In this document: positions 795 through 47,405 of the stretch, piece by piece
Layout: each line of letters begins with the position of its first letter
Position numbering within the stretch: the stretch's first letter is position 1
Virus record (IMG/VR): IMGVR_UViG_2648501149_000023
Length of the DNA: 48,089 nt
Source: a virus
Taxonomy: Duplodnaviria > Heunggongvirae > Uroviricota > Caudoviricetes
Strand: one strand, 5' to 3'
Made by a program: the position numbers and the translations under genes
Notes under the pieces: generated by a model
What the model saw: only the letters and a program-made list of their open reading frames with translations
Told to the model about the DNA's origin: nothing
Database searches by the model: none

Positions 795-914
795 GTTAGT
801 TGCGCTCTGCTGCTGCCTTAGCCATTACCATATCCACCCAATTTCACCAGACATGATTCTCGCAATCACTATCATCACCAAAGTGATAATCACAACTTTA
901 ACTGGCGGCATCAT
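795..914 (-). CDS. Possible 39-aa hydrophobic peptide, translationally coupled to the upstream gene
   Basis: Hand translation MMPPVKVVIITLVMIVIARIMSGEIWVDMVMAKAAAERN; its ATG overlaps the TGA stop of the 911..1537 gene (ATGA); below the ORF-track size cutoff. Confidence 0.25.
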
Positions 915-1537
915 TTGCCATCCTGCTGCGGCGGTTCTGGTAGCGGCATCCAGTGTGACGGCTCACATACCCCCTCAACACCATTCATGTAAAAGAATTG
1001 AAATAACCCTTTACCTTTGTGAAACCCTACCATCTGCTCTTTTGTGTCTGAGCAATAAACCAAAACATCTTCTTCGCTTGGCATTCGCTCACTACAGCTT
1101 ATCCAACCATCCGGAGTTACCGGAGAGTTGCCGGGTTCTTTAATGTGCAAGCGAGGCTCACCATCTTTTGGTTCAGGCCACTGGCGCTCCATGTTGATCT
1201 TCAATTTATTTTCCATAGCAGCGGTAATTTCAGCATCACTGATACCAGCACGGCGCTGTGCATCCCACAACAGGAACTGCATATCAGCCCACTCGCTGAG
1301 ATCGTCAGGTTCGGCTGCGGCTTCCAGAGCCTCTTTTGAGAGGTGTTTCAGTGGACCAATGGGGCCAACGCAGCCAAATGTGGAGTCAGACCATTTGGCA
1401 TGCTCGTGGCGAATCTGTTCGCGTTCCAGTAATGCCAGTGCAATTCGTGCCAGTTCCATTTGTTCGCCACGAGTAAGCCCGTTATCAAGCGGATTTTTAA
1501 TGAATAATTCGATACGTTCTTTGGTAATAGTGGTCAT
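911..1537 (-). CDS. DUF551-domain (Eaa-like) early protein
   Basis: C-terminal region with ...CSERMPSEEDVLVY...HWMPLPEPP typical of DUF551 proteins of lambdoid early-left regions (from recall); start overlaps the upstream stop (ATGA). Confidence 0.55.
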   Translation of the reverse strand: MTTITKERIELFIKNPLDNGLTRGEQMELARIALALLEREQIRHEHAKWSDSTFGCVGPIGPLKHLSKEALEAAAEPDDLSEWADMQFLLWDAQRRAGISDAEITAAMENKLKINMERQWPEPKDGEPRLHIKEPGNSPVTPDGWISCSERMPSEEDVLVYCSDTKEQMVGFHKGKGLFQFFYMNGVEGVCEPSHWMPLPEPPQQDGK

Positions 1538-3677: not shown

Positions 3678-4061
3678 TTAGAAGGGAATTGAATCGTCGT
3701 GTTCAGGATGATTTTGATGATTGCTACTTTGTTGCTGTTGGCTGTTTCCTGAAGTTGCAAATCCAATCTTTGCATTCAGTAATTCAAGAGTGATTGATTG
3801 ACCATTTTGCCCCTGATAAACATCAACCCTGATGTTTTCTCCGGTAATTTCAGCAATGCCACCTTCAACAAGAACACTACGGTAGTAATCCGCTTGCGCT
3901 CCCGGCTTGGCAAATACAACGGCGCTGTAGTTTGTCCATTCTTTCTTTTTTGTCTGGCGATCGTAATACTGAACGCCAGCACGGATGTTGAATCCGATAT
4001 TTTCCCCGGCCTGAAACTCTCTTGCGGGCTTGTTTAGTCTTACAGTAATCGAATGTGCCAT
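3678..4061 (-). CDS. ssb: Phage single-stranded DNA-binding protein
   Basis: 127-aa product MAHSITVRLNKPAREFQ... ending in the acidic SSB tail ...EHDDSIPF; ATG overlaps the erf stop (TAATG). Confidence 0.8.
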   Translation of the reverse strand: MAHSITVRLNKPAREFQAGENIGFNIRAGVQYYDRQTKKKEWTNYSAVVFAKPGAQADYYRSVLVEGGIAEITGENIRVDVYQGQNGQSITLELLNAKIGFATSGNSQQQQSSNHQNHPEHDDSIPF

Positions 4062-4666
4062 TAAGCAGCCGCTCCTTCTAATTCGTCTCGTCTGATGTTG
4101 TAAACGTCCTGCGCTTTGTGCTGCTCCGGTGTGCCTTCGAGCATCTTCCACGCTTTGGCGAACGCCTGTTTAAGCTCTTCTACGGTGTTTTTCTGCATTG
4201 CTGCGTCAGTGAATGCTTTTAGAACCTGTTCAGGTGTAGGTGATGGTTTTGATTGCTTTGCTGCTGCGTTCTGCTGATGTTTATGCTCGTCGGTATCTGC
4301 ATCTTTCGCATCATCAATGCCGAACAAACCATTGAGGCAATACTTGCGTGCATAAGAGCTTGTAGCTCCCGTAACTTGTGCAGAATCCATTCCTTTCTTG
4401 CTTTCTTCCTCTCGTGCAAGAGCGGTTGCCGTATGACTGTTTTCGCCATCGGTAATAGTTGCCGTGGCTTTCACATAATACCGATCACCAATCAACACAA
4501 CTTCATCGCTGATTGATAAAAACAGGCCATTCAGTAACGGCTTAACGCCTTCAAGAATGTCTTCGCAGCTTCTGTATTTATATTTACCGAATGAGTTGTA
4601 CTGATTCTTTGGCGCATTCAGATTCTCCTGAATAGCTGCCAGTCTTGCGTAAAATTCTTTGCTCAT
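4061..4666 (-). CDS. erf: Erf-family single-strand annealing recombinase (P22 Erf-like)
   Basis: MSKEFYARLAAIQENLNAPKNQYNSFGKYKYRSCEDILEGVKPLL... matches the P22 Erf N-terminus from recall; ATG at 4666; the ORF track extends to 4696. Confidence 0.7.
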   Translation of the reverse strand: MSKEFYARLAAIQENLNAPKNQYNSFGKYKYRSCEDILEGVKPLLNGLFLSISDEVVLIGDRYYVKATATITDGENSHTATALAREEESKKGMDSAQVTGATSSYARKYCLNGLFGIDDAKDADTDEHKHQQNAAAKQSKPSPTPEQVLKAFTDAAMQKNTVEELKQAFAKAWKMLEGTPEQHKAQDVYNIRRDELEGAAA

Positions 4667-5215: not shown

Positions 5216-6184
5216 TTAGTAGGTTATTTTTGTTGCGAATACTTCGCCTTTTACGATGGCTGTTATGATATTTTTAGCAACATCTTCTGATGCACCAACC
5301 TTGATAAGGTCAGCAAGTATTTTGTTATTTACTTCTTTCCGGTGAGCTTTATCCTTTGCTCTACGCTCTTCTTCGTCCTTGATTCTTTTTTCTTCTGCTA
5401 TTCTGGCTTGCTCTTTTGCTTCAGCCTCGCGACGGATTCGTTCAGCCTCCTCATGTGCTTTTCTGCGTTCTGCTTCAATTGCTGCCTGCTTTTCTCTTTC
5501 AGCTCGTTCTGCTGCCTCTTTTGCTTCGCGCTGTGCTCGTTGCTCGGCTTCAATGCGTTCACGCTCTGCACGTTCCGCTGCGGCCTTAGCTTCTGCTTCT
5601 CGCCTTGCTGCTGCTTCAATTTCGGCTTTTGCCTTTGCTTCGGCTTCTGCTCTGGCTTTCTCTTTAGCTTCTCTTTTTAATCGTTCTTCATGCTCTCGCT
5701 TTTCCTGCTCCGCTTTGAGTCTTGCCTCTTCTCTTTGGCGGTCAAATTCGCGATCCATCAAAATAGCTATTTCATGGTCATACTCAATTTGCTTTGCGAG
5801 AGCTTCAGCTGCTGCCTTAGCTTCTTCTTCGGCTTTAATCCGCGCCTGTTCTTCCTCATAATCAGTAAGAGGCTGGCGCGCCTTGGTTTTCAGTTCATCA
5901 AGGCGATCGCGCACTGTCTTGCGGTTAGCATCAATTAGCTTTGGAATTTCCTTCAGTTCAGCAACAAGGTCTTTGCCAAGACCATCGAGATATGTTTTCG
6001 TCTGCGCAACTTTATACGCCAGAGAAGCGATCTCCTTTCTGCCCTTTGCCGTTGTGATATCAGGCACAAAGGACATAACTTCACGTTCAACCTTTTGAAG
6101 GATTTCTTCAATCTGGTCGGCAGACTGAAATACAGTCATTGCATTTGCTTTTTCAATAACAACTAAATCTGTTACTTCACTCAT
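5216..6184 (-). CDS. Coiled-coil protein with a long E/K/A/R-rich repeat region (322 aa)
   Basis: ATG at 6184 preceded by GGAGGA; N-terminal globular part then about 150 aa of ...EAEAKAKAEIEAAARREAEAK... ; possibly DUF1351-like (recall, unverified). Confidence 0.6.
   Translation of the reverse strand: MSEVTDLVVIEKANAMTVFQSADQIEEILQKVEREVMSFVPDITTAKGRKEIASLAYKVAQTKTYLDGLGKDLVAELKEIPKLIDANRKTVRDRLDELKTKARQPLTDYEEEQARIKAEEEAKAAAEALAKQIEYDHEIAILMDREFDRQREEARLKAEQEKREHEERLKREAKEKARAEAEAKAKAEIEAAARREAEAKAAAERAERERIEAEQRAQREAKEAAERAEREKQAAIEAERRKAHEEAERIRREAEAKEQARIAEEKRIKDEEERRAKDKAHRKEVNNKILADLIKVGASEDVAKNIITAIVKGEVFATKITY
5390..5800. repeat. Low-complexity GC-skewed coding repeat (encodes the KAEAE-type region)
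   Basis: Degenerate reiteration of gcttc/gcctc/ttctgc units on the plus strand; produces several spurious ORFs on both strands. Confidence 0.6.
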
Positions 6185-6195
6185 ATATCCTCCGT

Positions 6196-6222
6196 CAAAA
6201 AATTGCCCTCACATTGGAGGGC
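6196..6222 (-). terminator. Intrinsic terminator (GCCCTC/GAGGGC hairpin plus U-run on the minus strand)
   Basis: Plus strand aaaaaattGCCCTCacattgGAGGGC; sits just upstream of the 5216..6184 gene start. Confidence 0.6.
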
Positions 6223-6339
6223 AAAGAAGATTTCCAATAATCAGAACAAGTCGGCTCCTGTTTAGTTACGAGCGACATTGCTCCGTGTATTCACTCGTTG
6301 GAATGAATACACAGTGCAGTGTTTATTCTGTTGTTTGTG

Positions 6340-6366
6340 CCAAAAATAAAGGCCGACTATGCGGCC
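6340..6366 (-). terminator. Intrinsic terminator after the 6357..6980 gene
   Basis: GGCCGactatgCGGCC hairpin with the stop codon in the loop, followed on the minus strand by TTTATTTTTGG. Confidence 0.55.
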
Positions 6367-6980
6367 TCGGAAGGAAGTCCAATCATCTTATTCAAATCTT
6401 CTACCCGTAAAGCAGGAAGTGCTGCACTTGCTTTATCTGCTTCTTTTGGTAGCAACTCTTTGCTTTCAGGCCAGACCTCAATAAGTCGCTTAACTGTTGT
6501 GACTGAGTTCAAAGCAGCCCATACATTTGATTCGATATCCTTTTTCCTGGCTTCAAGTTTTTGTTGCAATGCGCAGATTTCATCAAACCTTTTTGTTATT
6601 TTGTGTTCTGCGTCAAACATGCATTTATCTTTGTCGGGGGTAGGGAGCAATATATCTTCACCGTTGCCGTCTTTTCCGTATGAATGCCAGCCAACCCTTC
6701 TTCCAGATACAGTCAGATAAATCGAACTTGAACTGACATCGCATGAGTAAAATGAACATCCAAGCTTTTGAAGTTCCTCACTTGCAGCCATTAACTTTGA
6801 TGCCAGCTGGTCCACTTCTTCGGTTTTCTTTTTCCCGCCAAACGCAATAACTCTGGCGTCAAGTGCAAGCTGGTTCTTTAACTTTGTTACTTCTTCAAGT
6901 TCAGTGAAAACCCCAGACTTAATTAAAGCGTTACGAGCGATTTCCTCTTTCATTCTCGTAGTTAAGCGGATTGATGACAT
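6357..6980 (-). CDS. Hypothetical accessory protein (207 aa), own RBS and terminator
   Basis: ATG at 6980 (MSSIRLTTRMKEEIARNALIKSG...) preceded by GAGAGGA; no recognisable domain; occupies the sieB/esc position of P22-like genomes. Confidence 0.55.
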   Translation of the reverse strand: MSSIRLTTRMKEEIARNALIKSGVFTELEEVTKLKNQLALDARVIAFGGKKKTEEVDQLASKLMAASEELQKLGCSFYSCDVSSSSIYLTVSGRRVGWHSYGKDGNGEDILLPTPDKDKCMFDAEHKITKRFDEICALQQKLEARKKDIESNVWAALNSVTTVKRLIEVWPESKELLPKEADKASAALPALRVEDLNKMIGLPSEAA

Positions 6981-7116
6981 ATTAATTCCTCTCAAATAAG
7001 TGGTTTGCTGCCTAATTTCATTTTCTGGCGACCAACACAAGTCACACCCATTTCACTGCGTGGCTTGCGGTAGTAAATACGGTTATTTATGTCATTAAAA
7101 ACCAGCGTGAGCGTGG

Positions 7117-7383
7117 TTATTTTTTCTTTCCAAGAGATGGAAGCCCTCCAGAATAATCTGGACCACTTGAACGATGCATTTGATACAATATTGCGTTTTT
7201 GTTGGCGTTTAGTGGCTTTGTTGCGAAAGAAATTTTTTCTCGTTTTACATCTCTTATCATCATCAACTCACGTTCTGATGCTTTTGGATGATAATCATTG
7301 ATATGCTTCCATGCTGCCTTGGCGCTGAATTTTCTTCCACATAAAGGGCAATAGCATTTATATGATACTTGTTTGCTAGTCAT
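7117..7383 (-). CDS. Small C2H2-like zinc-finger protein (88 aa)
   Basis: YKCYCPLCGRKFSAKAAWKHINDYH has C-x2-C-x11-H-x4-H spacing; ATG lies 2 nt after the N stop; occupies the ral position. Confidence 0.55.
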   Translation of the reverse strand: MTSKQVSYKCYCPLCGRKFSAKAAWKHINDYHPKASERELMMIRDVKREKISFATKPLNANKNAILYQMHRSSGPDYSGGLPSLGKKK

Positions 7384-7385
7384 TT

Positions 7386-7694
7386 CTATCTCGCCGTAAT
7401 TGATTTCATTGACCTGTAACCAGCAGCATACAGTGCAACTTCAGGCAAACAAACGCTTCCGCCATTCGCATCTGTATTTGATTTACTGATGATGCCGAGT
7501 GATATTGCTTTTTCAGAAAGACTTAAACGCTTTCTCGGTTCTTCCTGAACAGCTTCCTCACTGTCTGTGCCGAAGATCGAATCGATGATGTTGCAGATGG
7601 AATCACGCTCGATAGCCAGCTTTCTGCGCCGCTCATGACGGCGAGTTTTGGCATTTCCTGCAAATGTTGATTTTCCGTACACGATTACCGTCAT
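7386..7694 (-). CDS. N: Antitermination protein N (P22 gene 24 type)
   Basis: MTVIVYGKSTFAGNAKTRRHERRRKLAIERD... contains the P22 N arginine-rich motif GNAKTRRHERRRKLAIER; ATG at 7694 preceded by GAGGA; the ORF track extends upstream to a non-ATG start. Confidence 0.85.
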   Translation of the reverse strand: MTVIVYGKSTFAGNAKTRRHERRRKLAIERDSICNIIDSIFGTDSEEAVQEEPRKRLSLSEKAISLGIISKSNTDANGGSVCLPEVALYAAGYRSMKSITAR

Positions 7695-7813
7695 GATGTT
7701 TTCCTCATGTGAAATGGCTTTGGTGGTGATGCGCCAGGTGCTGATCTTCTGGTTGCTGTCGTTGCAGCTGCAATTCACATCACCGCCAAACCCATCTCGT
7801 TTGGTATCTGTTT

Positions 7814-7848
7814 GCGCTTTGTCAGCGCCCCATCGAAGTTAAAGAGCC
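7814..7848 (-). promoter_or_regulatory. nutL (boxA GGCTCTTTAA and P22-type boxB GCGCTGACAAAGCGC)
   Basis: Minus-strand reading gives boxA GGCTCTTTAA at 7839-7848 and the boxB hairpin GCGC-UGACAAA-GCGC at 7814-7828, upstream of N. Confidence 0.8.
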
Positions 7849-7849
7849 T

Positions 7850-7987
7850 GCCAATCTGTTCCGTTTGGCTTCCAGCTTCCTGCTGATGGCTAAATAGTAC
7901 GATGTGTGCTTTATTGAGTCAATACAAAATGTTCTAAATGCGGTTAGTTTTTTATAACACTTTGTATTTTATTGATTTATATTTTGG
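7850..7987 (-). promoter_or_regulatory. pL / OL region (approximate)
   Basis: AT-rich interval between the cI terminator and nutL containing AGTAC-type motifs also seen in the OR region; individual operators not resolved. Confidence 0.35.
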
Positions 7988-8047: not shown

Positions 8048-8701
8048 TTAACTAAATGTCTCTTCAGGCCACTGGCTGGCGATAACTTTCCCTACTACGG
8101 AACAGCTATCATTGCATGGGATCATTGGATATTGCGGGTTTAGTGGTTGTAGGAACACCTGACCGCTATCCCTGATCAGTTTCTTGAAGGTAAACTCGTC
8201 ACCACCAAGTCTGGCTATGCAGAAATCACCTGGCTCAACAGCCTGCTCAGGGTCAACGAGAATTAACATCCCGTCAGGAAAGCTTGGCTTGGATCCTGTT
8301 GGTGCGGTCATGGAATTACCTTCAACTTCAAGCCAAAACGCACAATCACTGGCTTTTTTGGTTGTGCTGACCCATCTCTCCGCATCGCCTTTGGTAAAGG
8401 TTCTAAGCTCAGGCGAGAACATCCCGGCCTGAACATGAGAAAAAACAGGGTACTCATATTGTTTTTTAACGGGGGCAGATGAGTATTCGCCAACAGGTGA
8501 AAATGTACCGTCGTGGTTGAATGAGACGTTATCAATACCAAGGTATTTAAACACCACACCAATCTCGTCAAGAGATGGATGACGAGATCCGCGCAACCAG
8601 TGACCAATTCCACCCTGCGTCATACCAAGCTCTTCAGCTAACTTCTCTTGAGTTATGCCGAGTTCTTTCATTCTGGATCTAGCCAGTTCATACCATTTCA
8701 T
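8048..8701 (-). CDS. cI: CI-type prophage repressor (HTH plus S24 LexA-like autocleavage domain)
   Basis: N-terminal HTH (...[21 protein letters not shown]...) and C-terminal S24 domain with G-N-S-M and F-K-K-L catalytic motifs (...[10 protein letters not shown]...[28 protein letters not shown]...); ATG at 8701 with AGGA at 7 nt spacing. Confidence 0.9.
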
Positions 8702-8818
8702 TTTCATATCCTTATTATTACGCTCTGTACTAAAACCATCCATGCACAAGATGTATTTTTTGTTTGCATTCCAAAAGTACATGTCGTATTATTGTTTCAT
8801 GGTTACTATGGAGGGCAT
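8702..8818. promoter_or_regulatory. OR / pR / pRM divergent control region
   Basis: 117-bp interval between divergent cI and cro starts with repeated AAAAGTACA-type elements; operators not individually resolved. Confidence 0.5.
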
Positions 8819-12694: not shown

Positions 12695-13115
12695 AATTCG
12701 ATCTCCAGCACATCAGCAAAACGCTATTCACGCAGTACAGCAAATCCTTCCAGACCCAACCAAACCAATCGTAGTAACCATTCAGGAACGCAACCGCAGC
12801 TTAGACCAAAACAGGAAGCTATGGGCCTGCTTAGGTGACGTCTCTCGTCAGGTTGAATGGCATGGTCGCTGGCTGGATGCAGAAAGCTGGAAGTGTGTGT
12901 TTACCGCAGCATTAAAGCAGCAGGATGTTGTTCCTAACCTTGCCGGGAATGGCTTTGTGGTAATAGGCCAGCCAACCAGCAGGATGCGTGTAAGCGAATT
13001 TGCGGAGCTATTAGAGCTTATACAGGCATTCGGTACAGAGCGTGGCGTTAAGTGGTCAGACGAATCGAGACTGGCTCTGGAGTGGAAAGCGAGATGGGGA
13101 GATCGGGCTGCATGA
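12675..13115 (+). CDS. ninB: NinB recombination protein
   Basis: MKKLTFEIRSPAHQQNAIHAVQQILPDPTKPIVVTIQERNRSLDQNRKLWACLGDVSRQVEWHGRWLDAESWK... matches lambda NinB essentially throughout (recall). Confidence 0.95.
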   Translation: MKKLTFEIRSPAHQQNAIHAVQQILPDPTKPIVVTIQERNRSLDQNRKLWACLGDVSRQVEWHGRWLDAESWKCVFTAALKQQDVVPNLAGNGFVVIGQPTSRMRVSEFAELLELIQAFGTERGVKWSDESRLALEWKARWGDRAA

Positions 13116-13639
13116 CTATCAAATCAAATACGCCAGCACACGACAAGGACTGCTGGCAAACGCCGCTTTGGCTTTTTGATGCACTGGATATTGAGTTTGG
13201 ATTCTGGCTGGATTCGGCAGCGAGCGACAAAAATGCTCTGTGCGCTCACTGGCTAACTGAGGCCGACGACGCGCTCAATTCTGAGTGGGTAAGCCACGGT
13301 GCAATCTGGAATAACCCACCGTACAGCAATATCAGGCCGTGGGTGGAAAAAGCCGCTGAGCAGTGCATACAACAGCGACAGACGGTAGTTATGCTTGTGC
13401 CAGAGGATATGTCAGTCGGATGGTTCAGCAAGGCTCTGGAGAGTGTCGACGAAGTTCGTATTATCACTGATGGACGGATTAATTTTATCGAGCCATCGAC
13501 AGGGCTGGAGAAGAAGGGGAACAGCAAAGGTTCCATGCTGCTGATTTGGCGACCGTTCATCAGTCCTCGACGGATGTTTACTACCGTATCCAAAGCGGCA
13601 TTGATGGCGATCGGGCAGGGCGTCAGGAAGGCGGCATGA
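13112..13639 (+). CDS. Phage N6-adenine DNA methyltransferase (Dam-like)
   Basis: ATG overlaps the ninB stop (ATGA); product [26 protein letters not shown]... with the NPPY catalytic motif; the ORF track has a longer non-ATG start at 13052. Confidence 0.8.
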
Positions 13640-33903: not shown

Positions 33904-34077
33904 ATGACTGAAAAGATATCTTCCATCAAGCCGCGTCAGGTTCGTTTTACAGAAAAGGTTGATTCACATATCCGCGAATCAGCAAAAAGATGCCATAGGT
34001 CAATTCAGGCAGAGATAGCTTATCGAATGGAGTTATTGATGAAACTTGAGGCAAAGGGCGATGTTGTCATCCAATAA
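33904..34077 (+). CDS. Arc/Mnt-family ribbon-helix-helix repressor (Arc-like, 57 aa)
   Basis: Hand translation MTEKISSIKPRQVRFTEKVDSHIRESAKRCHRSIQAEIAYRMELLMKLEAKGDVVIQ has an RHH-type pattern (beta strand, then ...RS...EI...); below the ORF-track cutoff. Confidence 0.55.
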   Translation: MTEKISSIKPRQVRFTEKVDSHIRESAKRCHRSIQAEIAYRMELLMKLEAKGDVVIQ

Positions 34078-34160
34078 AAATAGTGAAGCCCGGCAGTGCG
34101 CGAACACAAACCGGGCCTCTATGTCAGTAACCGTATGCAAGGAAACTAACATGAATATTG
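34078..34160 (-). ncRNA. Possible sar-like antisense RNA across the ant RBS (hairpin plus U-run on the minus strand)
   Basis: GCCCGG...CCGGGC hairpin at about 34084-34112 is followed on the minus strand by TTCACTATTTTTATTGG; the transcript would be complementary to the ant RBS and start codon; a TACAAT -10-like hexamer lies on the minus strand inside the ant 5' end. Start is not mapped. Confidence 0.3.
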
Positions 34161-36216: not shown

Positions 36217-38382
36217 ATGACAGATTCGATAAATGCCAATGTTGTAGTGAGTATGCCTTCGCAACTCTTCACTATGGCGCGTTCTTTTAAAGCCGTAGCC
36301 AATGGTAAAATTTATATCGGTAAAATTGACACTGACCCGGTAAACCCTGAAAACCAGATTCAGGTTTATATAGAGAACGAAGACGGCTCTCACGTTCCTG
36401 TTTCGCAACCAATCATCATTAACGCTGCTGGTTATCCGGTATATAACGGACAAATTGCCAAATTCGTTACTGTACAGGGCCATTCTATGGCTGTTTATGA
36501 TGCATACGGTGCGCAGCAGTTTTATTTCCCTAATGTGTTGAAGTATGAGCCGGATCAATTAAGGTTGGAGCTTGAATCATCTGGTGGAGCAGGATTGATA
36601 GGTGGTGTTTCGAAGCCTATTACTTTTTTTGGTGCTATTGGTGATGGATTAACAAACAATACGCAGGCATTTAACGATGCAGAGATATTAGAATTCAATG
36701 ACATCTACATTCCTGATGGTGTTTATAATGTAAATAATATTAACTTAAATAAGAGATATTGGGGGCCTGGCATAGTAGTGATTAATTACCAGACTGAATA
36801 TTCTGGCTCTGGTGTTAACGACATGACCGTGTCAGGAATATACAATGGACAGCAAGATCTAAATGCAATTGTAAGAATAAAAGAAGCTTCAAATCCTGAT
36901 AAGCTTGAATTCAGTACAGATAATGGAGTTACATGGCATGACACGATAGACGTGTACAATCCAATCGATGACAGTGTATCTCCGCAACCAATCGTAATAC
37001 TTGCAGGCGGGGTGGATTTTTTCGTGAGTGGATTGAAGATAAACTTTTCTTCAACCACTGGACATACAGTAAATGACTCATGGTCATTTTTCATTCCTTC
37101 CAATCCATCAGTAATAAACACGGGAAGTGGCAGCATCGTTAAATCAGGAAGCGTTATTTTTAATGTTAGCGGAAACAATGATACTAATACTTCCGCTGGA
37201 AAAGACTCATTAGGCGGTGGAAACGTAGGAGCTAACAATACCGCATATGGGTGGAAGAGTTTGCACTCAAACACTACAGGATACGCAAATACCGCGTCTG
37301 GGATTCAGTCTATGGAAAACAATAAGACTGGTAAAAACAATTGTGCATACGGTGCTGATTCTCTAAGAGCTAACGTATCTGGTTCTGATAACGTAGCGGT
37401 TGGGGTCTTTGCGTCCGGAGCAAACACAACCGGGTACGGTAACACTGGACTTGGTAACGATGCCAATAGGTACAATGAAACAGGATTCGGAAATACCGCA
37501 GCGGGTGTGCAGGCACTGTACCACAACAAGGCCGGTAATGAGAACACAGCTTTCGGTGAATACGCATTACGCGGAGGAAATTCCAGCCTACCTACGGGAA
37601 CATCCATTCAGTATTCCGTCGCTGTAGGAGCTAAAGCCGGTTTCAACGCGTTAGGTAATAATAATACAGCTATAGGTTACGAGGCGCTATATTCTGCATC
37701 AGGATCTGATAATGTTGGTATTGGATTCGATGCAGGGTTTAAAGTAACGGCTGGTGCTTTCAATGTATTTTTAGGTTCTAATTCTGGTAACGGGTCAGAG
37801 CAGGCTACAGATGTGACAAACTGCGTCCTTATCGGAGATAATACAAAATCAACCGGAAGTAACGCAGTAGCTATCGGTAGTGGGGTAATTGCCGCTCAGA
37901 ATACTGTAGCTATAGGTAATAGTGAGCATGAATTATTCTTGCATTATGGGAAATTTATACCACAAATTGATAATGCTTTTGATATTGGTGGGCCGGATGC
38001 GAGATATAAAACAATATATGCAACTACAGGAATGATAAATACATCAAATGAAATGTTGAAAACAAAACTAACAGACATTGATGTTGCTGAAAAAAAAGCT
38101 GCACTAGAAATAAAAGATAATATTAAAAAGTTTAAGATGCTGGATTCTGTTGAGGTAAAGGGATTTGATGGTGCTAGGTGGCATTTTGGTGTTGGAGCTC
38201 AAACTGTTGGTAATATAATGAGGAAGCACGGACTTGATCCTAGTAAGTATGGGTTTTGGTGTCACGATAAAACGCATCGCGAACACATGACTGGAAATAT
38301 AGATATCTTTTGTGAAAGTTATGGTATAAGATATGACGAACTTGCAATGTTTATATTGGCATCAATATCTTTATGTGAATAA
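36217..38382 (+). CDS. Tailspike protein (P22 gp9-type head-binding domain, distinct receptor-binding domain)
   Basis: Residues 1 to about 110 ([60 protein letters not shown]...[13 protein letters not shown]...NVLKYEPDQ) match the P22 gp9 N-terminus (recall); the rest is N/G/T-rich repeat sequence (GNTxxG...); C-terminal SNEMLKTKL... segment could be an intramolecular chaperone module. Confidence 0.85.
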
Positions 38383-38478: not shown

Positions 38479-39105
38479 AATCCAGTCCGCCCACCACTGC
38501 ATCATTTCTCTGCGCTTAACGTAGCGGATGCCTCACTATCACACGGTGATAGTCCATTGCTGCTTTGAAGAATGGATAGAGAACTGAGGATAAAAAGATA
38601 TCCCAAAACCCAAAATCTCATCTTTAGGATTTGCAGAAAGGTAGGCGTGAACAAATACCTGCGCATGAAAACGGAACTAGTCCAGATGTGATGTTTGTGG
38701 TGATCACATACATCATTAACGATGCTCGTTATGGTGAGTTTGATGACTACCCGCTGAAGTGAAAATTGTGTTGTGTACCAAATTGCGTACCAAACTAAAA
38801 TCACAAATCATGAAACCCTTGTTCATGGCGGTTCTTAGGGGTGTTGCGCGTAATCGTGAAACAAAAAGGTAGATTGTTGCTTACCGTCATTCATCATTAG
38901 GTTAAATCCGTTATTTCTGCTGTCTGCCAGAGTATCAAATATCACCGTGCTAATCAGCTTTAGCGCGACAATTTGGCAGCGAGTGGCAACAGATCATGTC
39001 AGATAAAAATGAGGTAGTAGTCACATTTTCTTGCACTTTATTCCAGCCAGTTCATAAGTATTTCCGTAAAAAGAACAGCTATTTGAAACACCTGAGGGTT
39101 TGCTG

Positions 39106-40272
39106 TTGAAACGCCGTCTTATTATTGCTGCTTCTTTGTTCGTTTTTAATTTATCGTCTGGTTTTGCGGCGGAAAACATTCCTTTTTCACCTCAGCCTCC
39201 AGAGATTCATGCCGGGTCCTGGGTATTGATGGATTACACCACCGGTCAGATTCTCACCGCGGGTAATGAGCATCAACAGCGCAATCCCGCCAGCCTGACA
39301 AAGCTGATGACGGGCTATGTCGTGGATCGTGCTATCGATAGTCATCGCATTACGCCAGACGATATTGTCACCGTGGGGCGCGATGCGTGGGCGAAAGATA
39401 ATCCGGTGTTTGTCGGTTCTTCACTGATGTTTCTGAAAGAGGGCGATCGCGTATCGGTACGTGATTTAAGCCGTGGTTTAATTGTGGATTCCGGAAATGA
39501 CGCTTGTGTTGCTCTGGCTGACTATATTGCCGGTGGGCAACGGCAGTTTGTTGAAATGATGAACAACTATGCCGAGAAGCTGCATCTCAAGGATACGCAT
39601 TTTGAAACAGTGCATGGTCTGGATGCACCTGGCCAGCATAGCTCGGCTTATGATTTAGCTGTGCTTTCTCGCGCTATCATCCACGGCGAGCCCGAGTTTT
39701 ATCATATGTACAGTGAGAAAAGCCTCACCTGGAACGGTATCACTCAGCAAAACCGTAACGGGTTATTGTGGGATAAAACCATGAATGTTGACGGCCTGAA
39801 AACGGGTCATACTTCTGGTGCCGGGTTTAATCTCATTGCTTCGGCTGTGGATGGGCAGCGTCGTCTCATTGCAGTGGTAATGGGGGCTGACAGTGCAAAA
39901 GGTCGTGAGGAAGAGGCAAGAAAATTACTGCGTTGGGGGCAACAAAACTTTACTACGGTGCAAATTTTGCACCGTGGGAAAAAGGTCGGAACGGAACGCA
40001 TCTGGTATGGCGATAAAGAAAATATCGCCCTGGGAACGGAACAAGAGTTCTGGATGGTGCTACCGAAAGCCGAAATTCCACATATCAAAGCCAAATATAC
40101 CCTTGATGGTAAAGAACTCACCGCGCCAATTAGCGCCCATCAGCGGGTAGGGGAAATTGAACTTTATGACCGTGATAAACAGGTGGCGCACTGGCCGCTG
40201 GTTACCCTGGAATCTGTCGGGGAAGGCAGCATGTTTTCCCGGCTGAGTGATTATTTCCACCATAAGGCCTGA
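39106..40272 (+). CDS. dacD: D-alanyl-D-alanine carboxypeptidase DacD (PBP6b)
   Basis: MKRRLIIAASLFVFNLSSGFAAENIPFSPQPPEIHAGSWVLMDYTTGQILTAGNEHQQRNPASLTKLMTGY... with the SxxK motif; TTG start at 39106 after GAGGG (the ORF track starts at an upstream TTG, 39100). Confidence 0.9.
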   Translation: MKRRLIIAASLFVFNLSSGFAAENIPFSPQPPEIHAGSWVLMDYTTGQILTAGNEHQQRNPASLTKLMTGYVVDRAIDSHRITPDDIVTVGRDAWAKDNPVFVGSSLMFLKEGDRVSVRDLSRGLIVDSGNDACVALADYIAGGQRQFVEMMNNYAEKLHLKDTHFETVHGLDAPGQHSSAYDLAVLSRAIIHGEPEFYHMYSEKSLTWNGITQQNRNGLLWDKTMNVDGLKTGHTSGAGFNLIASAVDGQRRLIAVVMGADSAKGREEEARKLLRWGQQNFTTVQILHRGKKVGTERIWYGDKENIALGTEQEFWMVLPKAEIPHIKAKYTLDGKELTAPISAHQRVGEIELYDRDKQVAHWPLVTLESVGEGSMFSRLSDYFHHKA

Positions 40273-40358
40273 CCTTTCTTTTGCAGCAGACTGGCAGGAG
40301 TGCGAGTCTGCTCGCATAATCAACACTCATTCCTTGTGGTTTTAATATTGCAACTATA

Positions 40359-40374
40359 CTGTATATAAAAACAG
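40359..40374 (+). promoter_or_regulatory. LexA (SOS) box upstream of sbmC
   Basis: CTGTATATAAAAACAG fits the CTGT-N8-ACAG LexA consensus, about 20 bp upstream of the sbmC start. Confidence 0.7.
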
Positions 40375-40390
40375 TGTTAGTGGAGGCGTT

Positions 40391-40864
40391 ATGAACTACG
40401 AGATTAAGCAGGAAGATAAACGTACCGTTGCAGGTTTCCATCTTGTTGGCCCGTGGGAGCAGACGGTAAAGAAAGGTTTTGAGCAGTTGATGATGTGGAT
40501 AGATAGCAAAAATATTGTGCCGAAGGAGTGGGTTGCTGTCTATTACGACAATCCGGATGAAACACCCGCCGAAAAATTACGCTGCGACACCGTCGTGACG
40601 GTACCGAATAACTTTACGCTCCCCGAAAACAGTGAGGGCGTCATTCTGACAGAAATTTCAGGTGGTCAGTATGCGGTGGCGGTGGCTCGTGTAGTCGGTG
40701 ATGATTTTGCTAAACCCTGGTATCAGTTCTTTAATAGCCTCTTGCAGGACAGTGCCTATGAAATGTTACCAAAGCCCTGCTTCGAGGTTTACTTGAACAA
40801 TGGCGCGGAAGATGGGTACTGGGATATCGAAATGTATGTTGCGGTGCAGCCAAAACATCACTAA
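40391..40864 (+). CDS. sbmC: DNA gyrase inhibitor SbmC (GyrI)
   Basis: 157-aa product [47 protein letters not shown]... matches E. coli SbmC (recall). Confidence 0.95.
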
Positions 40865-41061
40865 TTCATCTCAGGGCGGTGTGTTGACGCGAAGACCACT
40901 CTTTTTTTGAAAGTGAAAAGAGTAAGATGCGCCTTTCAATTTTTTCGCTCCTGCCGGGAAATTACACTGTTCCCGGTTTGTCCGTCGGATAATTCAGAGG
41001 CGCGCCTTCTGGCCGACAGATGAGTTATGAGCGCTTTTAATCTTCATTACGGAGTTTCTGT

Positions 41062-42120
41062 GTGCGTGCCGATAAGTCATTAAGCCCGTTTGAAATCTGG
41101 GTATACCGCCATTACCGCATTGTGCATGGTACTCGGGTCGCGCTGGCATTCCTGCTCACTTTTCTCATTATCCGCCTGTTTACTATCCCGGAAAGCACCT
41201 GGCCGCTGGTCACCATGGTGGTGATTATGGGGCCAATCTCGTTCTGGGGGAACGTTGTCCCTCGTGCCTTCGAACGTATTGGCGGTACGGTGTTGGGTTC
41301 GATTTTAGGTCTTATCGCTCTGCAACTGGAGTTAATTTCGTTACCGCTGATGTTAGTCTGGTGCGCGGCGGCGATGTTTCTTTGCGGTTGGCTGGCGCTG
41401 GGCAAGAAACCGTATCAAGGATTATTGATTGGGGTGACGCTGGCAATTGTTGTGGGTTCCCCGACAGGTGAAATTGATACGGCGTTATGGCGAAGCGGCG
41501 ATGTGATCCTCGGCTCTTTACTGGCAATGTTGTTTACCGGTATCTGGCCACAACGCGCGTTCATCCACTGGCGCATTCAACTGGCGAAAAGTCTGACCGA
41601 GTATAATCGGGTCTATCAATCGGCATTCTCACCGAACTTACTCGAACGCCCACGTCTGGAAAGCCATCTACAAAAACTGCTGACCGATGCCGTGAAAATG
41701 CGTGGGCTGATTGCGCCCGCCAGCAAAGAAACCCGTATTCCAAAATCGATATATGAAGGTATCCAGACCATTAATCGCAATCTGGTTTGTATGCTGGAGT
41801 TGCAAATCAATGCATACTGGGCCACGCGCCCCAGCCATTTCGTGTTATTGAACGCGCAAAAACTTCGTGATACCCAGCACATGATGCAGCAAATACTGCT
41901 GAGCCTTGTTCATGCGCTGTACGAAGGTAATCCGCAGCCGGTTTTTGCCAATACGGAAAAATTGAACGATGCTGTGGAAGAGCTGCGTCAGTTGCTGAAT
42001 AACCACCATGACCTGAAGGTTGTGGAAACACCAATCTATGGTTATGTGTGGCTGAACATGGAAACGGCACATCAGCTTGAGTTGCTATCGAGTCTGATTT
42101 GCCGGGCCTTGCGCAAATAA
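41062..42120 (+). CDS. yeeA: Inner membrane protein YeeA
   Basis: 352-aa product MRADKSLSPFEIWVYRHYRIVHGTRVALAFLLTFLIIRLF... ; GTG start after GGAG; matches E. coli YeeA (recall). Confidence 0.9.
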   Translation: MRADKSLSPFEIWVYRHYRIVHGTRVALAFLLTFLIIRLFTIPESTWPLVTMVVIMGPISFWGNVVPRAFERIGGTVLGSILGLIALQLELISLPLMLVWCAAAMFLCGWLALGKKPYQGLLIGVTLAIVVGSPTGEIDTALWRSGDVILGSLLAMLFTGIWPQRAFIHWRIQLAKSLTEYNRVYQSAFSPNLLERPRLESHLQKLLTDAVKMRGLIAPASKETRIPKSIYEGIQTINRNLVCMLELQINAYWATRPSHFVLLNAQKLRDTQHMMQQILLSLVHALYEGNPQPVFANTEKLNDAVEELRQLLNNHHDLKVVETPIYGYVWLNMETAHQLELLSSLICRALRK

Positions 42121-42291
42121 TTCCTGAACTTCAGAATCATCTTGCTGCTGCTTCGATTCAGCAAGGATAAAGGGTATGATAGTGAAAAGGGATAAAAGCA
42201 TTGTCATCTGCGGCAGCTATGAGTAATGTTGGCCCTAACGAATAGCGGTTGCTTAAACGAATCCGACTCTCACATTATCAGGGGTATAAAA

Positions 42292-42621
42292 ATGGAAACT
42301 ACCAAGCCTTCATTCCAGGACGTACTGGAATTTGTTCGTCTGTTCCGTCGTAAGAACAAACTGCAACGTGAAATTCAGGACGTTGAGAAAAAGATCCGTG
42401 ACAACCAGAAGCGCGTCCTGTTGCTGGACAACCTGAGCGATTACATCAAGCCAGGGATGAGCGTTGAAGCAATCCAGGGCATCATCGCCAGCATGAAAGG
42501 TGACTATGAAGATCGCGTTGACGATTACATCATCAAAAATGCCGAGCTCTCCAAAGAACGCCGCGATATCTCCAAAAAGCTGAAAGCTATGGGCGAAATG
42601 AAAAACGGCGAAGCGAAGTAA
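42292..42621 (+). CDS. yeeX: YeeX (DUF496 / UPF0265 protein)
   Basis: [57 protein letters not shown]...; ATG at 42292; the ORF track extends upstream to 42226. Confidence 0.9.
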
Positions 42622-42721
42622 TTCCTGTTTTATTCAATGAGGGTTGCCCGGCAACCCTCAGTGCTCATTGATTCTTATCTGTGTATCACCGTCATCATTC
42701 TCATCTGAGAACCTATCGAAA

Positions 42722-42904
42722 TTAGCGACAGCCTTCTTCTGTATGCAGCAAGGCAAAAAGTTCTGTAACTCCATTGTTATTAACCGCACTGGTTACTAAC
42801 ACGTTGTGCGCTCCAGCTTCCCGTAACCAACATTTCACCAAAGATGTTTGTTCCATACTGGCTAAATCTGCTTTGGTTACTACTCCAATGACCGGGTGAT
42901 TCAT
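42722..42904 (-). pseudogene. yoeF: Truncated EutP/PduV-like GTPase C-terminal fragment (yoeF-like)
   Basis: ...NHPVIGVVTKADLASMEQTSLVKCWLREAGAHNVLVTSAVNNNGVTELFALLHTEEGCR resembles the C-terminus of EutP-family proteins; the upstream part of the ORF (to 43078) is antisense to the IS66-like fragment and is not genuine coding sequence. Confidence 0.5.
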
Positions 42905-43131
42905 GGCCCGGTAGGGCGTTTTTACCTCTAATTCCTGCTTCAGCGCTGAGATTCCTGCTTGTTGCCGGAAAAGCAGGCACCTGCCGTCTGAACGGTATCG
43001 ATCCGGAAGCGTATCTGCGCCATATTCTGAGCATACTGCCGGAATGGCCCTCCAACCGTGTTGACGAACTCCTGCCATGGAACGTAGTTCTCACCAATAA
43101 ATAAGCGTCAATACGGTGCTCCGTTGACGCT
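42905..43131 (+). mobile_element. IS66-family element remnant (3' end of transposase ORF plus terminal inverted repeat)
   Basis: Plus-frame translation ...GKAGTCRLNGIDPEAYLRHILSILPEWPSNRVDELLPWNVVLTNK* resembles IS66 transposase C-termini; followed by AGCGTCAATACGGTGCTCCGTTGACGCTTAC, ending in a GTAAGCG-type terminus on the opposite strand. Left boundary is approximate. Confidence 0.5.
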
Positions 43132-43518
43132 TACTTTAATCCGTTTTCTGAGCTTAGATTTTTCTGTTCCTACCCAGACCGTGGATTTGGAATTCATTTT
43201 TTGTCAGGTCAATGCTAATCGTTAAAACGGCCATAACGCACCTCCACTGGAAGGTTTATCAGTAATATCCTACCGTTGCTTCATGGTCGGGGCGTCCATT
43301 CCATTATTATCGGTTTTCCTTTCTGTTTATAAATGAAAACGCCAGCTGTATTCAGGCTGGCGTCAGGGGAAATGAAGCCTGTTGAGTGAGATTCACCGGT
43401 TCTGGTGCAGAAGCTGCAGATGGCGCAGGGTAAGGACATCTTCTCTTGCCTGCTTAATACAGGACAACAGTGCTGTTTCTGTGGTTAATGGCACTATACC
43501 CTGCATCACTGCATTGTC

Positions 43519-43713
43519 TTACAGCAACTGGTGAGGGCTGGCATAAGTTGCCGGTGTTTCGGTAGAGTCACGGTCATCCACCACGCGGAGTGAATAACCG
43601 TTTTCAGCGGCCTTATTAATCAGCTCAGTGATATTAACACCATCAATGTCAACGACAATGTGCCCCATATCCAGCGCCTGTACGTTAACGCTGTCGGCTT
43701 CCAGTGTCATCAT
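43519..43713 (-). CDS. yeeW: YeeW (CP4-44-type small protein)
   Basis: MMTLEADSVNVQALDMGHIVVDIDGVNITELINKAAENGYSLRVVDDRDSTETPATYASPHQLL; its ATG overlaps the cbtA-frame stop (ATGA). Confidence 0.7.
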   Translation of the reverse strand: MMTLEADSVNVQALDMGHIVVDIDGVNITELINKAAENGYSLRVVDDRDSTETPATYASPHQLL

Positions 43714-44083
43714 TTCGCCTCCGGATACTTACCCAGGGTAATGTTATTTACCGTTCTGTAATTGTCGCGGGTCATCAGGCCGGTCGCCCTGCGAGCCCGG
43801 AGGATATCGATGCTGTTTATTAACTGAGAGCGGGTACAGGCGCTGAATCCCGGCTGGTCGGTAGCACCAGCGCGTATTTTTCCACGAGAAAGTTCACCGC
43901 ATCACACAGTGAAATGCCTGCCTCAATATGCTGCTCAATCACACGTTCATCGGCAAAAGGTGTGTCATTCTGTGTGAGGCCATAGTGCTGGTCCAGCAGT
44001 CGGGACAGCAGTATCTGCCAGATTTCAACAGGAGACGGGCGAGAACTGGCCGCCTGCCCGGGTAATACAGGTAATGTTTTCAT
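43710..44083 (-). pseudogene. cbtA: cbtA (yeeV) toxin gene disrupted by a frameshift
   Basis: N-terminal 71 codons ([73 protein letters not shown]) then frame change near 43858-43868; the remaining CbtA-like sequence ([49 protein letters not shown]) continues in the -1 frame to 43710. Confidence 0.75.
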
Positions 44084-44171
44084 ACTGAAGATTTTCCTGA
44101 TATGCAGATATAAAAATGGAAAAGTGGCGTGGTGAAAACACCAGGCCGTAGCAGAAGGCTATTCTGGAGAG

Positions 44172-44540
44172 TTAATTTTTCATTTCGGGCGTCGGATAAA
44201 CAGCCAGATAAACGTAACCACAACTGCTGAGGGTATCGGCTTTGCAGGTCAGCCCTTTTGCATACAGCGTGACGGTATGCTGATGGCGGGGATTCAGTTC
44301 ACCGCTGGTGAGCATGAGTTCCAGTTGTTTCATCAGCAGCGGAAAGGCCTGGTCCAGGTGGTACGCATCTGCATCGCTGAACAGGCCTCTGATACCGGCG
44401 CGGTCGGCAAGGTAATGCAACCGGTTACCCTCCTGCACCAGACGTGCCCCGAAACAGGGCGTCACGGTGCAGGGCAGCCCCCACCAGGGGCGGTCGTGAT
44501 TGTCGTCGGGAAGTGTTGTCCCGGGGAGTGTGTCTGACAC
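44172..44540 (-). CDS. cbeA: CbeA (YeeU) antitoxin
   Basis: 122-aa product MSDTLPGTTLPDDNHDRPWWGLPCTVTPCFGARLVQEGNRLHYLADRAGIRGLF... matches YeeU/CbeA (recall). Confidence 0.9.
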   Translation of the reverse strand: MSDTLPGTTLPDDNHDRPWWGLPCTVTPCFGARLVQEGNRLHYLADRAGIRGLFSDADAYHLDQAFPLLMKQLELMLTSGELNPRHQHTVTLYAKGLTCKADTLSSCGYVYLAVYPTPEMKN

Positions 44541-44613
44541 GATAAAATCCTTACAGAAAATCGGCTAAGAATGGTCCGGTAGTGGCGATAATTCTGCTCA
44601 TCAGAATTCCCAC

Positions 44614-44835
44614 TCAGTTCAGGGTGACGCTCATCAGCCGGACATACGGACCAAAACTGTCCTTACGGCGTTCAGCAAACACGGCCAGCACACCGGGAAT
44701 ATCCTGCACTTCACGACCGGTATACGCTTCAGCACTGCCGTGCCAGCGGTATTTACCGGTACAGAACGGAAAAAGACGGGATGTCGGATGTTGTTGGTGA
44801 ATACGCATGGCTTCACCACGGGTGATAATTTTCAT
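44614..44835 (-). CDS. yeeT: YeeT (DUF987)
   Basis: 73-aa product MKIITRGEAMRIHQQHPTSRLFPFCTGKYRWHGSAEAYTGREVQDIPGVLAVFAERRKD... Confidence 0.85.
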   Translation of the reverse strand: MKIITRGEAMRIHQQHPTSRLFPFCTGKYRWHGSAEAYTGREVQDIPGVLAVFAERRKDSFGPYVRLMSVTLN

Positions 44836-44897
44836 AATGGGATACCTCTGAAGACAGAAGATAAAAGTGAAAACAGGTGTGATGTGGTTGTGAAGGG

Positions 44898-45374
44898 TTA
44901 AAGCAGACTATGTTCGGCAAAGGAGAAAACCTGGTTGCCACCGACTATCAGATGGTCCGGCACCCGGATATCCACCAGGCCCAGTGCCTGTACCAGACGT
45001 TCGGTGATAAGCCGGTCTGCCTTACTGGGTGTGACTTCACCGGACGGGTGATTGTGTGCCAGTACCACGGCAGCGGCATTGTGGTACAGGGCGCGTTTAA
45101 TCACTTCCCGGGGATGGACTTCCGTGCGGTTGATGGTGCCGGTGAAGAGGGTTTCACCGGCAATCAGCTGATTCTGGTTGTTCAGATACAGCACCCGGAA
45201 TTCTTCACGCTCCAGTCCCGCCATGTTCAGAATCAGCCATTCCCGTGCTGCACGGGTGGAGGTGAAGGCCACGCCGGGTTCATGAAGATGGCGGTCCAGG
45301 GTTTTCAGGGCCCGTTGAATGAGGCTGCGCTCGCCGGGCGTCATCTCTCCGGGCAGAAAGGAAAGTTGTTGCAT
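44898..45374 (-). CDS. yeeS: RadC-like JAB-domain protein YeeS
   Basis: MQQLSFLPGEMTPGERSLIQRALKTLD...VVLAHNHPSGEVTPSKADRLIT... (JAMM H-x-H...S...D motif); ATG at 45374 with GGAGAG RBS. Confidence 0.85.
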   Translation of the reverse strand: MQQLSFLPGEMTPGERSLIQRALKTLDRHLHEPGVAFTSTRAAREWLILNMAGLEREEFRVLYLNNQNQLIAGETLFTGTINRTEVHPREVIKRALYHNAAAVVLAHNHPSGEVTPSKADRLITERLVQALGLVDIRVPDHLIVGGNQVFSFAEHSLL

Positions 45375-45389
45375 TGTGCTTCTCTCCAT

Positions 45390-45869
45390 TCAGTCGATGA
45401 TGCGCATAATGGCGCTGCATTCCGGATGCTGCAGGGCGTAATCCCGCAACCGGTAATAATGAACCGTCATGGCATAATTCTCCGTACGACAGGCATGATG
45501 ACTGTACGTCATCAGACAGGCGGTAATACCGGCGGCTTCCGGGCTCATTTCTGCGCGGTTACCGTTCATGGCATTGAACAGTACCCATGTTTCGTCATCA
45601 TCATCATCCGGTTCGGGTGCCATAAATGCCCCGCCGTTGTTCAGGGTGTACAGATTCCAGATACCACCGCAGTAGTCTTCGCACAGACGGTCCATCCAGC
45701 CGAAGACACGGGGCTCCAGGGTCACCCACTGTGGAATGAGGCCAAAATGCTGCGGCCAGAAGCTGATGCGCTGTTCATCAGGGACGAGGCTGGCAACCAA
45801 CTGAGGCGGATTATTCTCTGGTGTTGTAGCTGAATAAATTGTGGGGGTATTCTGAGAAACGGTTTTCAT
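45390..45869 (-). CDS. Antirestriction protein (ArdB/KlcA family)
   Basis: 159-aa ORF ...ISFWPQHFGLIPQWVTLEPRVFGWMDRLCEDYCGGIWNLYTLNNGGAFMAPE... matches YfjX/KlcA-type antirestriction proteins (recall). Confidence 0.8.
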   Translation of the reverse strand: MKTVSQNTPTIYSATTPENNPPQLVASLVPDEQRISFWPQHFGLIPQWVTLEPRVFGWMDRLCEDYCGGIWNLYTLNNGGAFMAPEPDDDDDETWVLFNAMNGNRAEMSPEAAGITACLMTYSHHACRTENYAMTVHYYRLRDYALQHPECSAIMRIID

Positions 45870-47390: not shown

Positions 47391-47405
47391 GATAGACTCC
47401 TTAAA

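Follow-up and report, generated by a model that had tools for sequence, protein, structure and literature searches.

The 207-aa open reading frame (ORF) at 6357..6980 on the minus strand of the window, the whole 48,089 nt stretch of DNA analysed here, almost certainly encodes a full-length member of the Nmad5 family (Pfam PF18757), as judged from its sequence. In this window, which is a prophage of E. coli and P22-like (Lederbergvirus-type), the gene is almost certainly the third one of the N-antiterminated, P22-type pL operon. It forms a self-contained mosaic cassette, comprised of a 65-nt leader, the ORF and an intrinsic terminator, at the place where lambda has ral. The gene is already catalogued, and published work and current annotation largely account for what the sequence-only reading had described as an unassigned accessory gene.

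In an hmmscan search against Pfam-A, the protein matched PF18757 with 234.9 bits (cut-off 27, E=1.2e-69), residues 4-203 of 207 being aligned to profile positions 1-206 of 206. At E<=1 this search returned three further, sub-threshold matches of coiled-coil type and nothing else. The protein also matches PHROG 1965, while a search of NCBIfam gave no match. E. coli genes ~95-99% identical at the DNA level carry the RefSeq/PGAP name “Nmad5 family putative nucleotide modification protein”, so the former view of an ORF without any family match did not hold. Positions conserved in the family, determined in alignments of 77-195 members, are all found in the window protein (R5, R43, G48, G93, T162, W170-P171-E172, L176, P178, N197, G201 and P203). 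Two other leads were discarded: the best PADLOC match, to a type II methyltransferase model (E=0.039), was treated as noise, and the “NMAD” domain of validated DefensePredictor defence systems is Nmad2 (PF18753), not Nmad5, and is not relevant here.

The ORF starts with ATG at 6980, preceded by its own ribosome binding site, GAGAGGAA at 6986-6993, whose AGGA core is separated from the start codon by 6 nt. An alternative TTG start, used in the annotation of phage Kapi1, extends the ORF to 7040 (227 aa). The ATG is preferred because of the ribosome binding site and of the conserved N-terminus (M-x-R-L-T, residues 1-7) common to all homologues. Related loci supplied 20 distinct alleles, all but one of them intact (19), with a median pairwise dN/dS of 0.22; the gene is under purifying selection. 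Selection and homology both favour the minus-strand frame, and thus rule out an ORF on the opposite strand (6319..6720) that is annotated in HK244. The existence of the ORF and of its ribosome binding site, both proposed earlier, is confirmed, and the strand, which had been left unstated, is added. The product is a soluble, roughly neutral protein of ~23 kDa (pI 6.8), in which no hydrophobic or transmembrane segment was detected (maximum of the Kyte-Doolittle 19-residue window, 0.86).

Copies of the locus are common. It was found in at least 196 of 5426 complete E. coli genomes (at least 3.6%), and homologues with at least 90% identity are present in 77 phage records, many of them Stx-converting phages, together with HK244, Kapi1, PhiR12_5 and APC_JM3.2; identical copies of the gene occur in IMG/VR. 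When 1.84 billion cluster representatives were searched with the Nmad5 profile, 2639 clusters (50% identity) matched at E<=1e-3, and the best 150 of them are mostly stand-alone proteins of ~200 aa.

Conservation within the family is densest in the N-terminal helix and in residues 160-203, and the central third is variable both in sequence and in length. The sole invariant residue in the 77-195 members is N197. Near-invariant residues are R5, I14, A18, G23, R43, G48, G93, T162, L166, W170, P171, E172, L176, P178, L188, L196, G201 and P203, and the most conserved element is the C-terminal TT-x-K-(K/R)-L-x-E-x-WPE ... LPA ... DLN-x-x-IGLP. An AlphaFold (AF2) model (pLDDT 84.5, pTM 0.70) describes a soluble alpha/beta protein composed of an N-terminal three-helix unit, a small beta meander, a long helix and short C-terminal helices. 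In the conserved tail (183-207) the pLDDT falls to 45-54, and disorder is predicted there for the monomer. The structure search named as a check in the sequence-only reading disclosed no match among solved structures: comparison with the PDB gave no credible sequence or profile match and no similar fold, and matches in BFVD were only to other Nmad5 or unnamed phage proteins.

From pL to the TolA-like gene, the parts described here lie on the minus strand, as does Erf. A pL-like promoter (7894..7922, TTGACT-17-TACTAT, 9/12 matches in the promoter scan) is located between the gene of a cI-like repressor (8048-8782) and N, and is the positional homologue of the annotated pL in HK244 and HK106. 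It is followed by a nutL site at 7814..7847, read from the sequence, with a boxA-like GCTCTTTAA (7839-7847) and a boxB hairpin GCGCTGACAAAGCGC (7814-7828) which we take to be of the P22 type. Next in order are the antiterminator N gene (7386..7703; PF25694 N_peptide, E=7e-37; PHROG 271), a gene for an 88-aa zinc-finger-like protein with a CxxC...HxxxxH pattern (7117..7383; PHROG 20899, E=2e-64; Pfam zinc-finger matches all below threshold), the Nmad5 gene, and a gene for a 322-aa coiled-coil protein named “TolA” in relatives (5216..6184; PHROG 1376 / 21365), for which no Pfam match was found. Further along are Erf (4061-4666; PF04404) and Abc2 (PF11043), with cIII and kil placed between the TolA-like gene and Erf by homology with an annotated relative, E. 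coli LR-24. Ead/Ea22 and a dATP/dGTP pyrophosphohydrolase gene (911-1537) are still further left, and a Dam methylase gene is distant from Nmad5, at 13052-13639. The position between N and the recombination module, as originally proposed, was therefore confirmed. Where the zinc-finger gene ends (7097..7118), RNA folding shows a weak hairpin followed by U5, absent from the terminator scan; it is a possible tL1-like terminator, so that Nmad5 may be either immediate-early or N-dependent. A consensus scan of the minus strand from 6981 to 7893, which weak promoters could escape, found no sigma70-like promoter between pL and the Nmad5 start.

Two strong terminators follow the ORF on its own strand, and their identity could be specified. 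Terminator 1 (6342-6368) has a 7-bp stem GAGGCCG/CGGCCTT and the loop CATAGT, which contains the TAG stop codon just as had been described, followed by TATTTTT. It also marks where the cassette joins the lambdoid backbone in the mosaic, as homology to lambda begins inside its loop. Terminator 2 (6197-6224), with an 8-bp stem TTGCCCTC/GAGGGCAA and T6, lies 125 bp further downstream and ends 12 nt before the start codon of the next gene. In the 4.2 kb between 5000 and 9200, the terminator scan counted 9 terminator-like sites, compared to 4.8 +/- 2.2 in shuffled sequences; on the minus strand, terminators 1 and 2 rank within the top three, and homologous loci retain both.

The segment at 6200-6363 (164 nt) is 97% identical to lambda 33926-34088, the intergenic region between ral and ea10. 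This identity shows terminator 2 to be lambda tL2a and puts Nmad5 exactly at the position of ral. The segment comprises a homologue of the small RNA LPR1/PreS, of about 88 nt and ending at tL2a (6197..6284; its 5' end is approximate, being counted 88 nt back from the U-run), which differs from lambda in two places only, in the terminator loop and at the 3' edge. Immediately 5' of it there is a conserved long hairpin (6285..6312) with the stem GUGUAUUCAUUC/GAGUGAAUACAC, identical in lambda, and the whole region 6190-6375, this hairpin included, folds at -65 kcal/mol (z=-5.5). Rfam 15 gave no match, either for the whole window at the gathering threshold or for 6100-7200 at E<=1, so LPR1/PreS goes undetected by Rfam 15. 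In lambda, LPR1/PreS is an Hfq-dependent sRNA of ~88 nt that is processed to ~68 nt and has its 3' end at tL2a (bioRxiv 10.1101/2024.10.31.621285; PMC12197685). After induction it is seen from 10 min onwards, whereas lysogens lack it (bioRxiv 10.1101/2024.10.31.621285). Host dnaN is a target whose translation it activates, and replication of the phage DNA is supported by it (bioRxiv 10.1101/2024.10.31.621285; review PMC12197685).

To evaluate which of these parts belong together, we compared 80 close Nmad5 loci from IMG/VR. The LPR1/PreS element is present in 74 of them and directly follows the ORF in 61, and the ~155-nt segment between the two terminators occurs in 331 phage records, with or without Nmad5. 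The segment downstream of the ORF is not a spacer belonging to Nmad5. The second terminator is thus really there at about the distance first reported, and it is not the ORF's own. Terminator 1 is kept in most of the 80 loci, with a T.T mismatch in the stem in 8. The proposal of a terminator-bounded unit stands as far as the terminators themselves are concerned, but an insulated unit is not supported, since the consensus scan gave no promoter-like site between pL and the ORF. For the same reason we rejected a moron, i.e. a unit of promoter, gene and terminator: a terminator was found, a promoter-like site was not. Both terminators represent the normal architecture of a lambdoid early-left operon, the second being part of a published sRNA.

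The same loci reveal what travels with the ORF. The 65-nt leader (6981..7045), which includes GAGAGGAA, is near-identical in most of them whatever the upstream gene, and the scan found no promoter-like site in it, the ribosome binding site alone being evident. Leader and 3' joint are both kept irrespective of neighbours. Nmad5 is downstream of cI/N in all 80 loci, with varying immunity types, while the zinc-finger gene is present in about 7, and the TolA-like gene directly downstream in about 15. These counts rule out a functional operon with either gene, and Nmad5 is independent of both; the link with the adjacent zinc-finger gene that had been suggested is hence unsupported. Ral is directly upstream of Nmad5 in 6 loci, and in loci with Ral the sequence GGCCTTTATTTT is found after ral and again after Nmad5, which reads as a typical mosaic boundary. 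LR-24 has Ral and a different small gene in the slot in place of Nmad5, and lambda has sieB, orf28 and ral there; the slot just downstream of N is variable, and the original description of an accessory gene is upheld. More distant prophage members in IMG/VR, ~30-35% identical to the query from an N4-like phage (B2), keep the same pL position. They are accompanied by a cI-like repressor, the same coiled-coil gene and Erf, and also by a ~113-aa Arg-rich protein, possibly N-like (no Pfam match), and a putative Exo/YqaJ-like protein.

Across the family, Nmad5 is found in other surroundings as well. Carriers include N4-like phages, Dhillonvirus and Hungariovirus, which are presumably virulent groups. 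The order in N4-like phages is DNA polymerase, ThyX, Nmad5, PD-(D/E)xK nuclease, primase-helicase, AAA and SSB; the 328-aa neighbour was considered as aGPT-Pplase/HMUDK by comparison with YuA, and this was ruled out, as it is the PD-(D/E)xK nuclease. YuA and Pam3 have a kinase, the 5-hmdU DNA kinase helical protein (PF18723), Nmad5, dU hydroxymethylase and DNA polymerase. On other sampled phage contigs, Nmad5 adjoins DNA polymerase A, primase-polymerases, Rv2179c-like exonucleases, Sak4-type AAA_24 with DUF669 and a helicase, or NinG, Dam and Lar, and in SPN3UB it is in the nin region. The common denominator of the sampled contexts is an early DNA replication/recombination module, of which base-modification genes make up a subset. 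The survey therefore ties Nmad5 to replication/recombination modules generally and not to base modification specifically.

Taken together, we favour the explanation that Nmad5 is a cassette of the pL operon whose product is a lytic-phase accessory of DNA metabolism acting by binding, and as a whole we consider this reasonably probable. Transcription from pL would begin only once the phage has infected or been induced, and the gene would be silent in the lysogen, as is reported in lambda for LPR1, the next element downstream. Early in the lytic cycle the protein would serve phage DNA metabolism, in replication, recombination or DNA protection, as an accessory that the phage can do without. It would probably work by binding rather than by catalysis, since N197 is the only invariant residue, the middle of the protein is variable and the conserved tail has low pLDDT. 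The candidate binding surface consists of a basic patch (R5, K21, R43, K164 and R165) and the C-terminal TT...IGLP module, and candidate partners are DNA, proteins of the replisome or of recombination, and defence NTPases of the host. Taken by itself, the mechanistic part (binding, not catalysis) is tentative and rather doubtful. A bolder generalization, which we regard as unlikely although worth stating, is that Nmad5 represents a widespread and hitherto unrecognised early phage effector class in which the disordered C-terminal motif and the basic patch dock on a conserved host or phage protein of DNA metabolism or defence. In lambdoid prophages it would then be a stand-alone counter-defence or replication-hijacking factor beside the dnaN-activating sRNA PreS, and not a nucleotide-modifying enzyme; if so, the family name Nmad5 would be misleading.

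No biochemical activity of any Nmad5 member was found reported in a full-text literature search. Genetic information comes from Dhillonvirus, in which the substitution K296E in Nmad5 (K216E in SM_A8) lets the phage escape the Tmn defence system; phages deleted for nmad5 are viable and do not escape, and cloning of the gene failed because of apparent toxicity (PMC11846954). Using the family profile, residue K296 of SM_S22 (PP627283) was placed opposite R165 of the window protein, inside the motif TT-x-K-(K/R)-L-x-E-x-WPE. Only from M81 onwards does the annotated SM_S22 protein (334 aa) match PF18757, and this accounts for the SM_A8 version being “truncated”. Two other phages were tried for mapping of the escape site and dismissed: HK578 (Dhillonvirus) has a different gene in the slot, and C130_2 is a Hungariovirus. 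Location of the escape site within the conserved K(K/R)L.E.WPE motif offers a concrete experimental handle. Within this large family, of ~2600 clusters at 50% identity, one homologue is genetically linked to Tmn escape.

These data bear on the possibility, overlapping with our main view, that Nmad5 is a dedicated early counter-defence protein directed against a host immune system, for example restriction or a Tmn-like KAP NTPase, comparable to its slot-mates Ral and Abc2. It would fit the ral position in an operon that also encodes Abc2 and the behaviour of Nmad5 as a mobile, dispensable cassette. The effect of one substitution in the motif, opposed to that of the deletion, reads as altered interaction specificity, and the apparent toxicity on cloning (PMC11846954) points in the same direction. 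However, wild-type Dhillonvirus Nmad5 gives no protection against Tmn (PMC11846954), no member has a demonstrated anti-defence activity, and the PADLOC search gave nothing better than the match at E=0.039 mentioned above. In addition, the protein is neither acidic nor DNA-mimic-like (pI 6.8), and frequent placement in the replication modules of virulent phages fits the role of a housekeeping accessory at least equally well. We estimate a dedicated counter-defence role as fairly improbable.

A low probability is also assigned to the explanation implied by the family name, that Nmad5 is an enzyme, or an obligate subunit of one, that modifies nucleotides or phage DNA and shields the DNA from host nucleases. 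The family name goes back to the presence of its genes in base-modification cassettes (Iyer et al. 2013, cited in PMC11846954), and in M6-like phages the gene is listed within a thymidine-hypermodification cassette (PMC9476957). Consistent with this, Nmad5 of YuA, Pam3 and SN1 adjoins the 5-hmdU DNA kinase helical protein, a kinase and dU hydroxymethylase, the gene of SPN3UB is near one annotated as queuine tRNA-ribosyltransferase, and a few polar residues (E172, E175, R43 and N197) are conserved. On the other hand, most of the conservation is of a hydrophobic or structural kind, disorder is predicted for the tail motif, most sampled contexts are replication/recombination modules without modification enzymes, and two published reconstitutions of thymidine hypermodification make no mention of Nmad. 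No genes for hydroxymethylase, 5-hmdU kinase or aGPT-Pplase were detected in the pL operon or among the selected larger ORFs scanned, and by the same ORFs and the LR-24 annotation, the prophage has only the distant Dam methylase and the dATP/dGTP pyrophosphohydrolase. Since a base-modification neighbourhood is a contextual feature and not a sequence criterion, its lack leaves the assignment of the protein to Nmad5 intact.

Finally, the earlier idea of a prophage-expressed superinfection exclusion or host-protection gene of SieB/Esc type, possibly working with the zinc-finger gene, takes its appeal from the interval between N and recombination genes where lambda and P22 carry sieB and from the downstream terminators, but it is very improbable, as Pfam-A at E<=1 gave no match to SieB or another exclusion family, the transmembrane segment is absent (hydrophobic maximum 0.86), the gene shares strand and operon with N under pL/nutL and has no promoter-like site of its own in the consensus scan, lambda LPR1 just downstream is silent in lysogens, the zinc-finger gene is missing from about 73 of 80 loci, and family members reside in presumed virulent phages, usually inside replication/recombination modules.

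The lytic-phase accessory that we prefer can be placed alongside several known systems. Lambda Ral occupies the same slot, as the last accessory gene before the LPR1/tL2a segment in an N-antiterminated pL operon, and GGCCTTTATTTT follows both genes; nevertheless, Ral (66 aa) and Nmad5 (207 aa) have no sequence similarity, and their co-occurrence in 6 of 80 loci indicates that they are not simple alternatives. SieB (Esc) of lambda and P22 lies in the same general interval between N and cIII, and differs in that Nmad5 does not match its family, contains no membrane segment, showed no own promoter in the scan and has relatives among virulent phages. LPR1/PreS with tL2a has the same upstream neighbours (T-run joint and long hairpin) and the same place in the operon in lambda and in the window, while the upstream gene is ral in lambda and Nmad5 here, the 3' end of Nmad5 supplying the stronger hairpin, terminator 1. 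The window copy is likened to the lambda sRNA by nucleotide identity, and Hfq binding, lytic expression and dnaN activation are features known for lambda only. Closest in kind are the Nmad5 proteins of Dhillonvirus SM_S22, Shigella phage B2 (gp19) and Pseudomonas phage YuA (gp15), which belong to the same family as the window protein and share with it the N-terminal R-L-T...NA..K.G helix, the GG and G93 positions, and the C-terminal TT.K(K/R)L.E.WPE...LPA...DLN..IGLP module. What distinguishes them is the setting: the window gene is in a lambdoid pL operon without adjoining base-modification enzymes, that of YuA and Pam3 is inside a thymidine-hypermodification cassette, and that of N4-like phages is in a replication module.

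The intergenic region downstream of the Nmad5 gene contains a homologue of the LPR1/PreS sRNA (6197-6284, minus strand), near-identical to the Hfq-dependent sRNA of lambda and ending at its 3' end in the tL2a terminator (6197-6224). The element is shared by 331 phage records, most of which, among the matches listed, carry no annotation over it, and of the 80 close Nmad5 loci 74 have it as well. A search with Rfam 15 also failed to detect the copy at 6197-6284.

Directly 5' of the sRNA homologue lies a long conserved hairpin (6285-6312, minus strand), with the stem GUGUAUUCAUUC/GAGUGAAUACAC, which is identical to the lambda sequence. This hairpin may serve to process or stabilise the precursor of the sRNA. 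Inside the sRNA (6230-6275, minus strand), an ATG within the LPR1-like sequence opens a 27-codon ORF (MSLVTKQEPTCSDYWKSSLPSNVRAIF), which reads through the terminator. A GGAG motif is placed just 2 nt 5' of this ATG, and one of the few variable sites observed, ACT/ACC, is synonymous. The presence of this ORF within the LPR1-like sequence is probably due to chance.

In those of the 80 loci that carry both ral and Nmad5, the short repeat GGCCTTTATTTT occurs after ral and again after Nmad5, at sites equivalent to 6342-6355 and 6981-6995 of the window. It looks like a recombination joint used for cassette insertion. In addition, both arms of terminator 1, the terminator whose loop holds the Nmad5 stop codon, are changed in 8 of the 80 loci (GAGGTCG...CGTCCTT, equivalent to window 6349-6368). 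The change produces a T.T mismatch instead of a compensatory pair; hence terminator 1 is not strictly conserved.

Among the neighbouring genes of the early-left operon, an 88-aa protein (7117-7383, minus strand; PHROG 20899, function unknown) displays a zinc-finger-like CxxC...HxxxxH pattern; all its Pfam zinc-finger matches are sub-threshold. Its gene follows N after a gap of only 2 nt. No more than about 7 of the 80 Nmad5 loci carry this gene, which makes it an independent accessory gene. The 322-aa protein (5216-6184, minus strand; PHROG 1376 / 21365, function unknown), which contains a long Glu/Lys/Ala-rich coiled coil, gave no match in the Pfam search and is called "TolA" in databases; its gene (cluster C11) recurs in pL operons of divergent lambdoid prophages.

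Further genes of the prophage encode a dATP/dGTP pyrophosphohydrolase with a DUF551 fusion (911-1537, minus strand), the anti-RecBCD protein Abc2 (PF11043; 3358-3654, minus strand) and a Dam-type N6-adenine methyltransferase (PF05869; 13052-13639, plus strand). In the second half, a 721-aa ORF (36217-38382) is the tailspike according to position and homology to annotated relatives. Phage homology stops just beyond it, at about 38.5-38.9 kb, and the final ~9.5 kb (about 38500-48089), with several short ORFs, looks like host or other-island DNA.

Finally, the published "Nmad5" CDS6 of Escherichia phage SM_S22 (L171, PP627283; 5005-6009, minus strand) is annotated as 334 aa. Similarity to the Nmad5 family begins at M81 (MRLTKDIK...), and codons 1-80 are probably not translated. 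K296, the residue associated with escape from the Tmn defence system in SM_S22, is aligned with R165 of the window protein.
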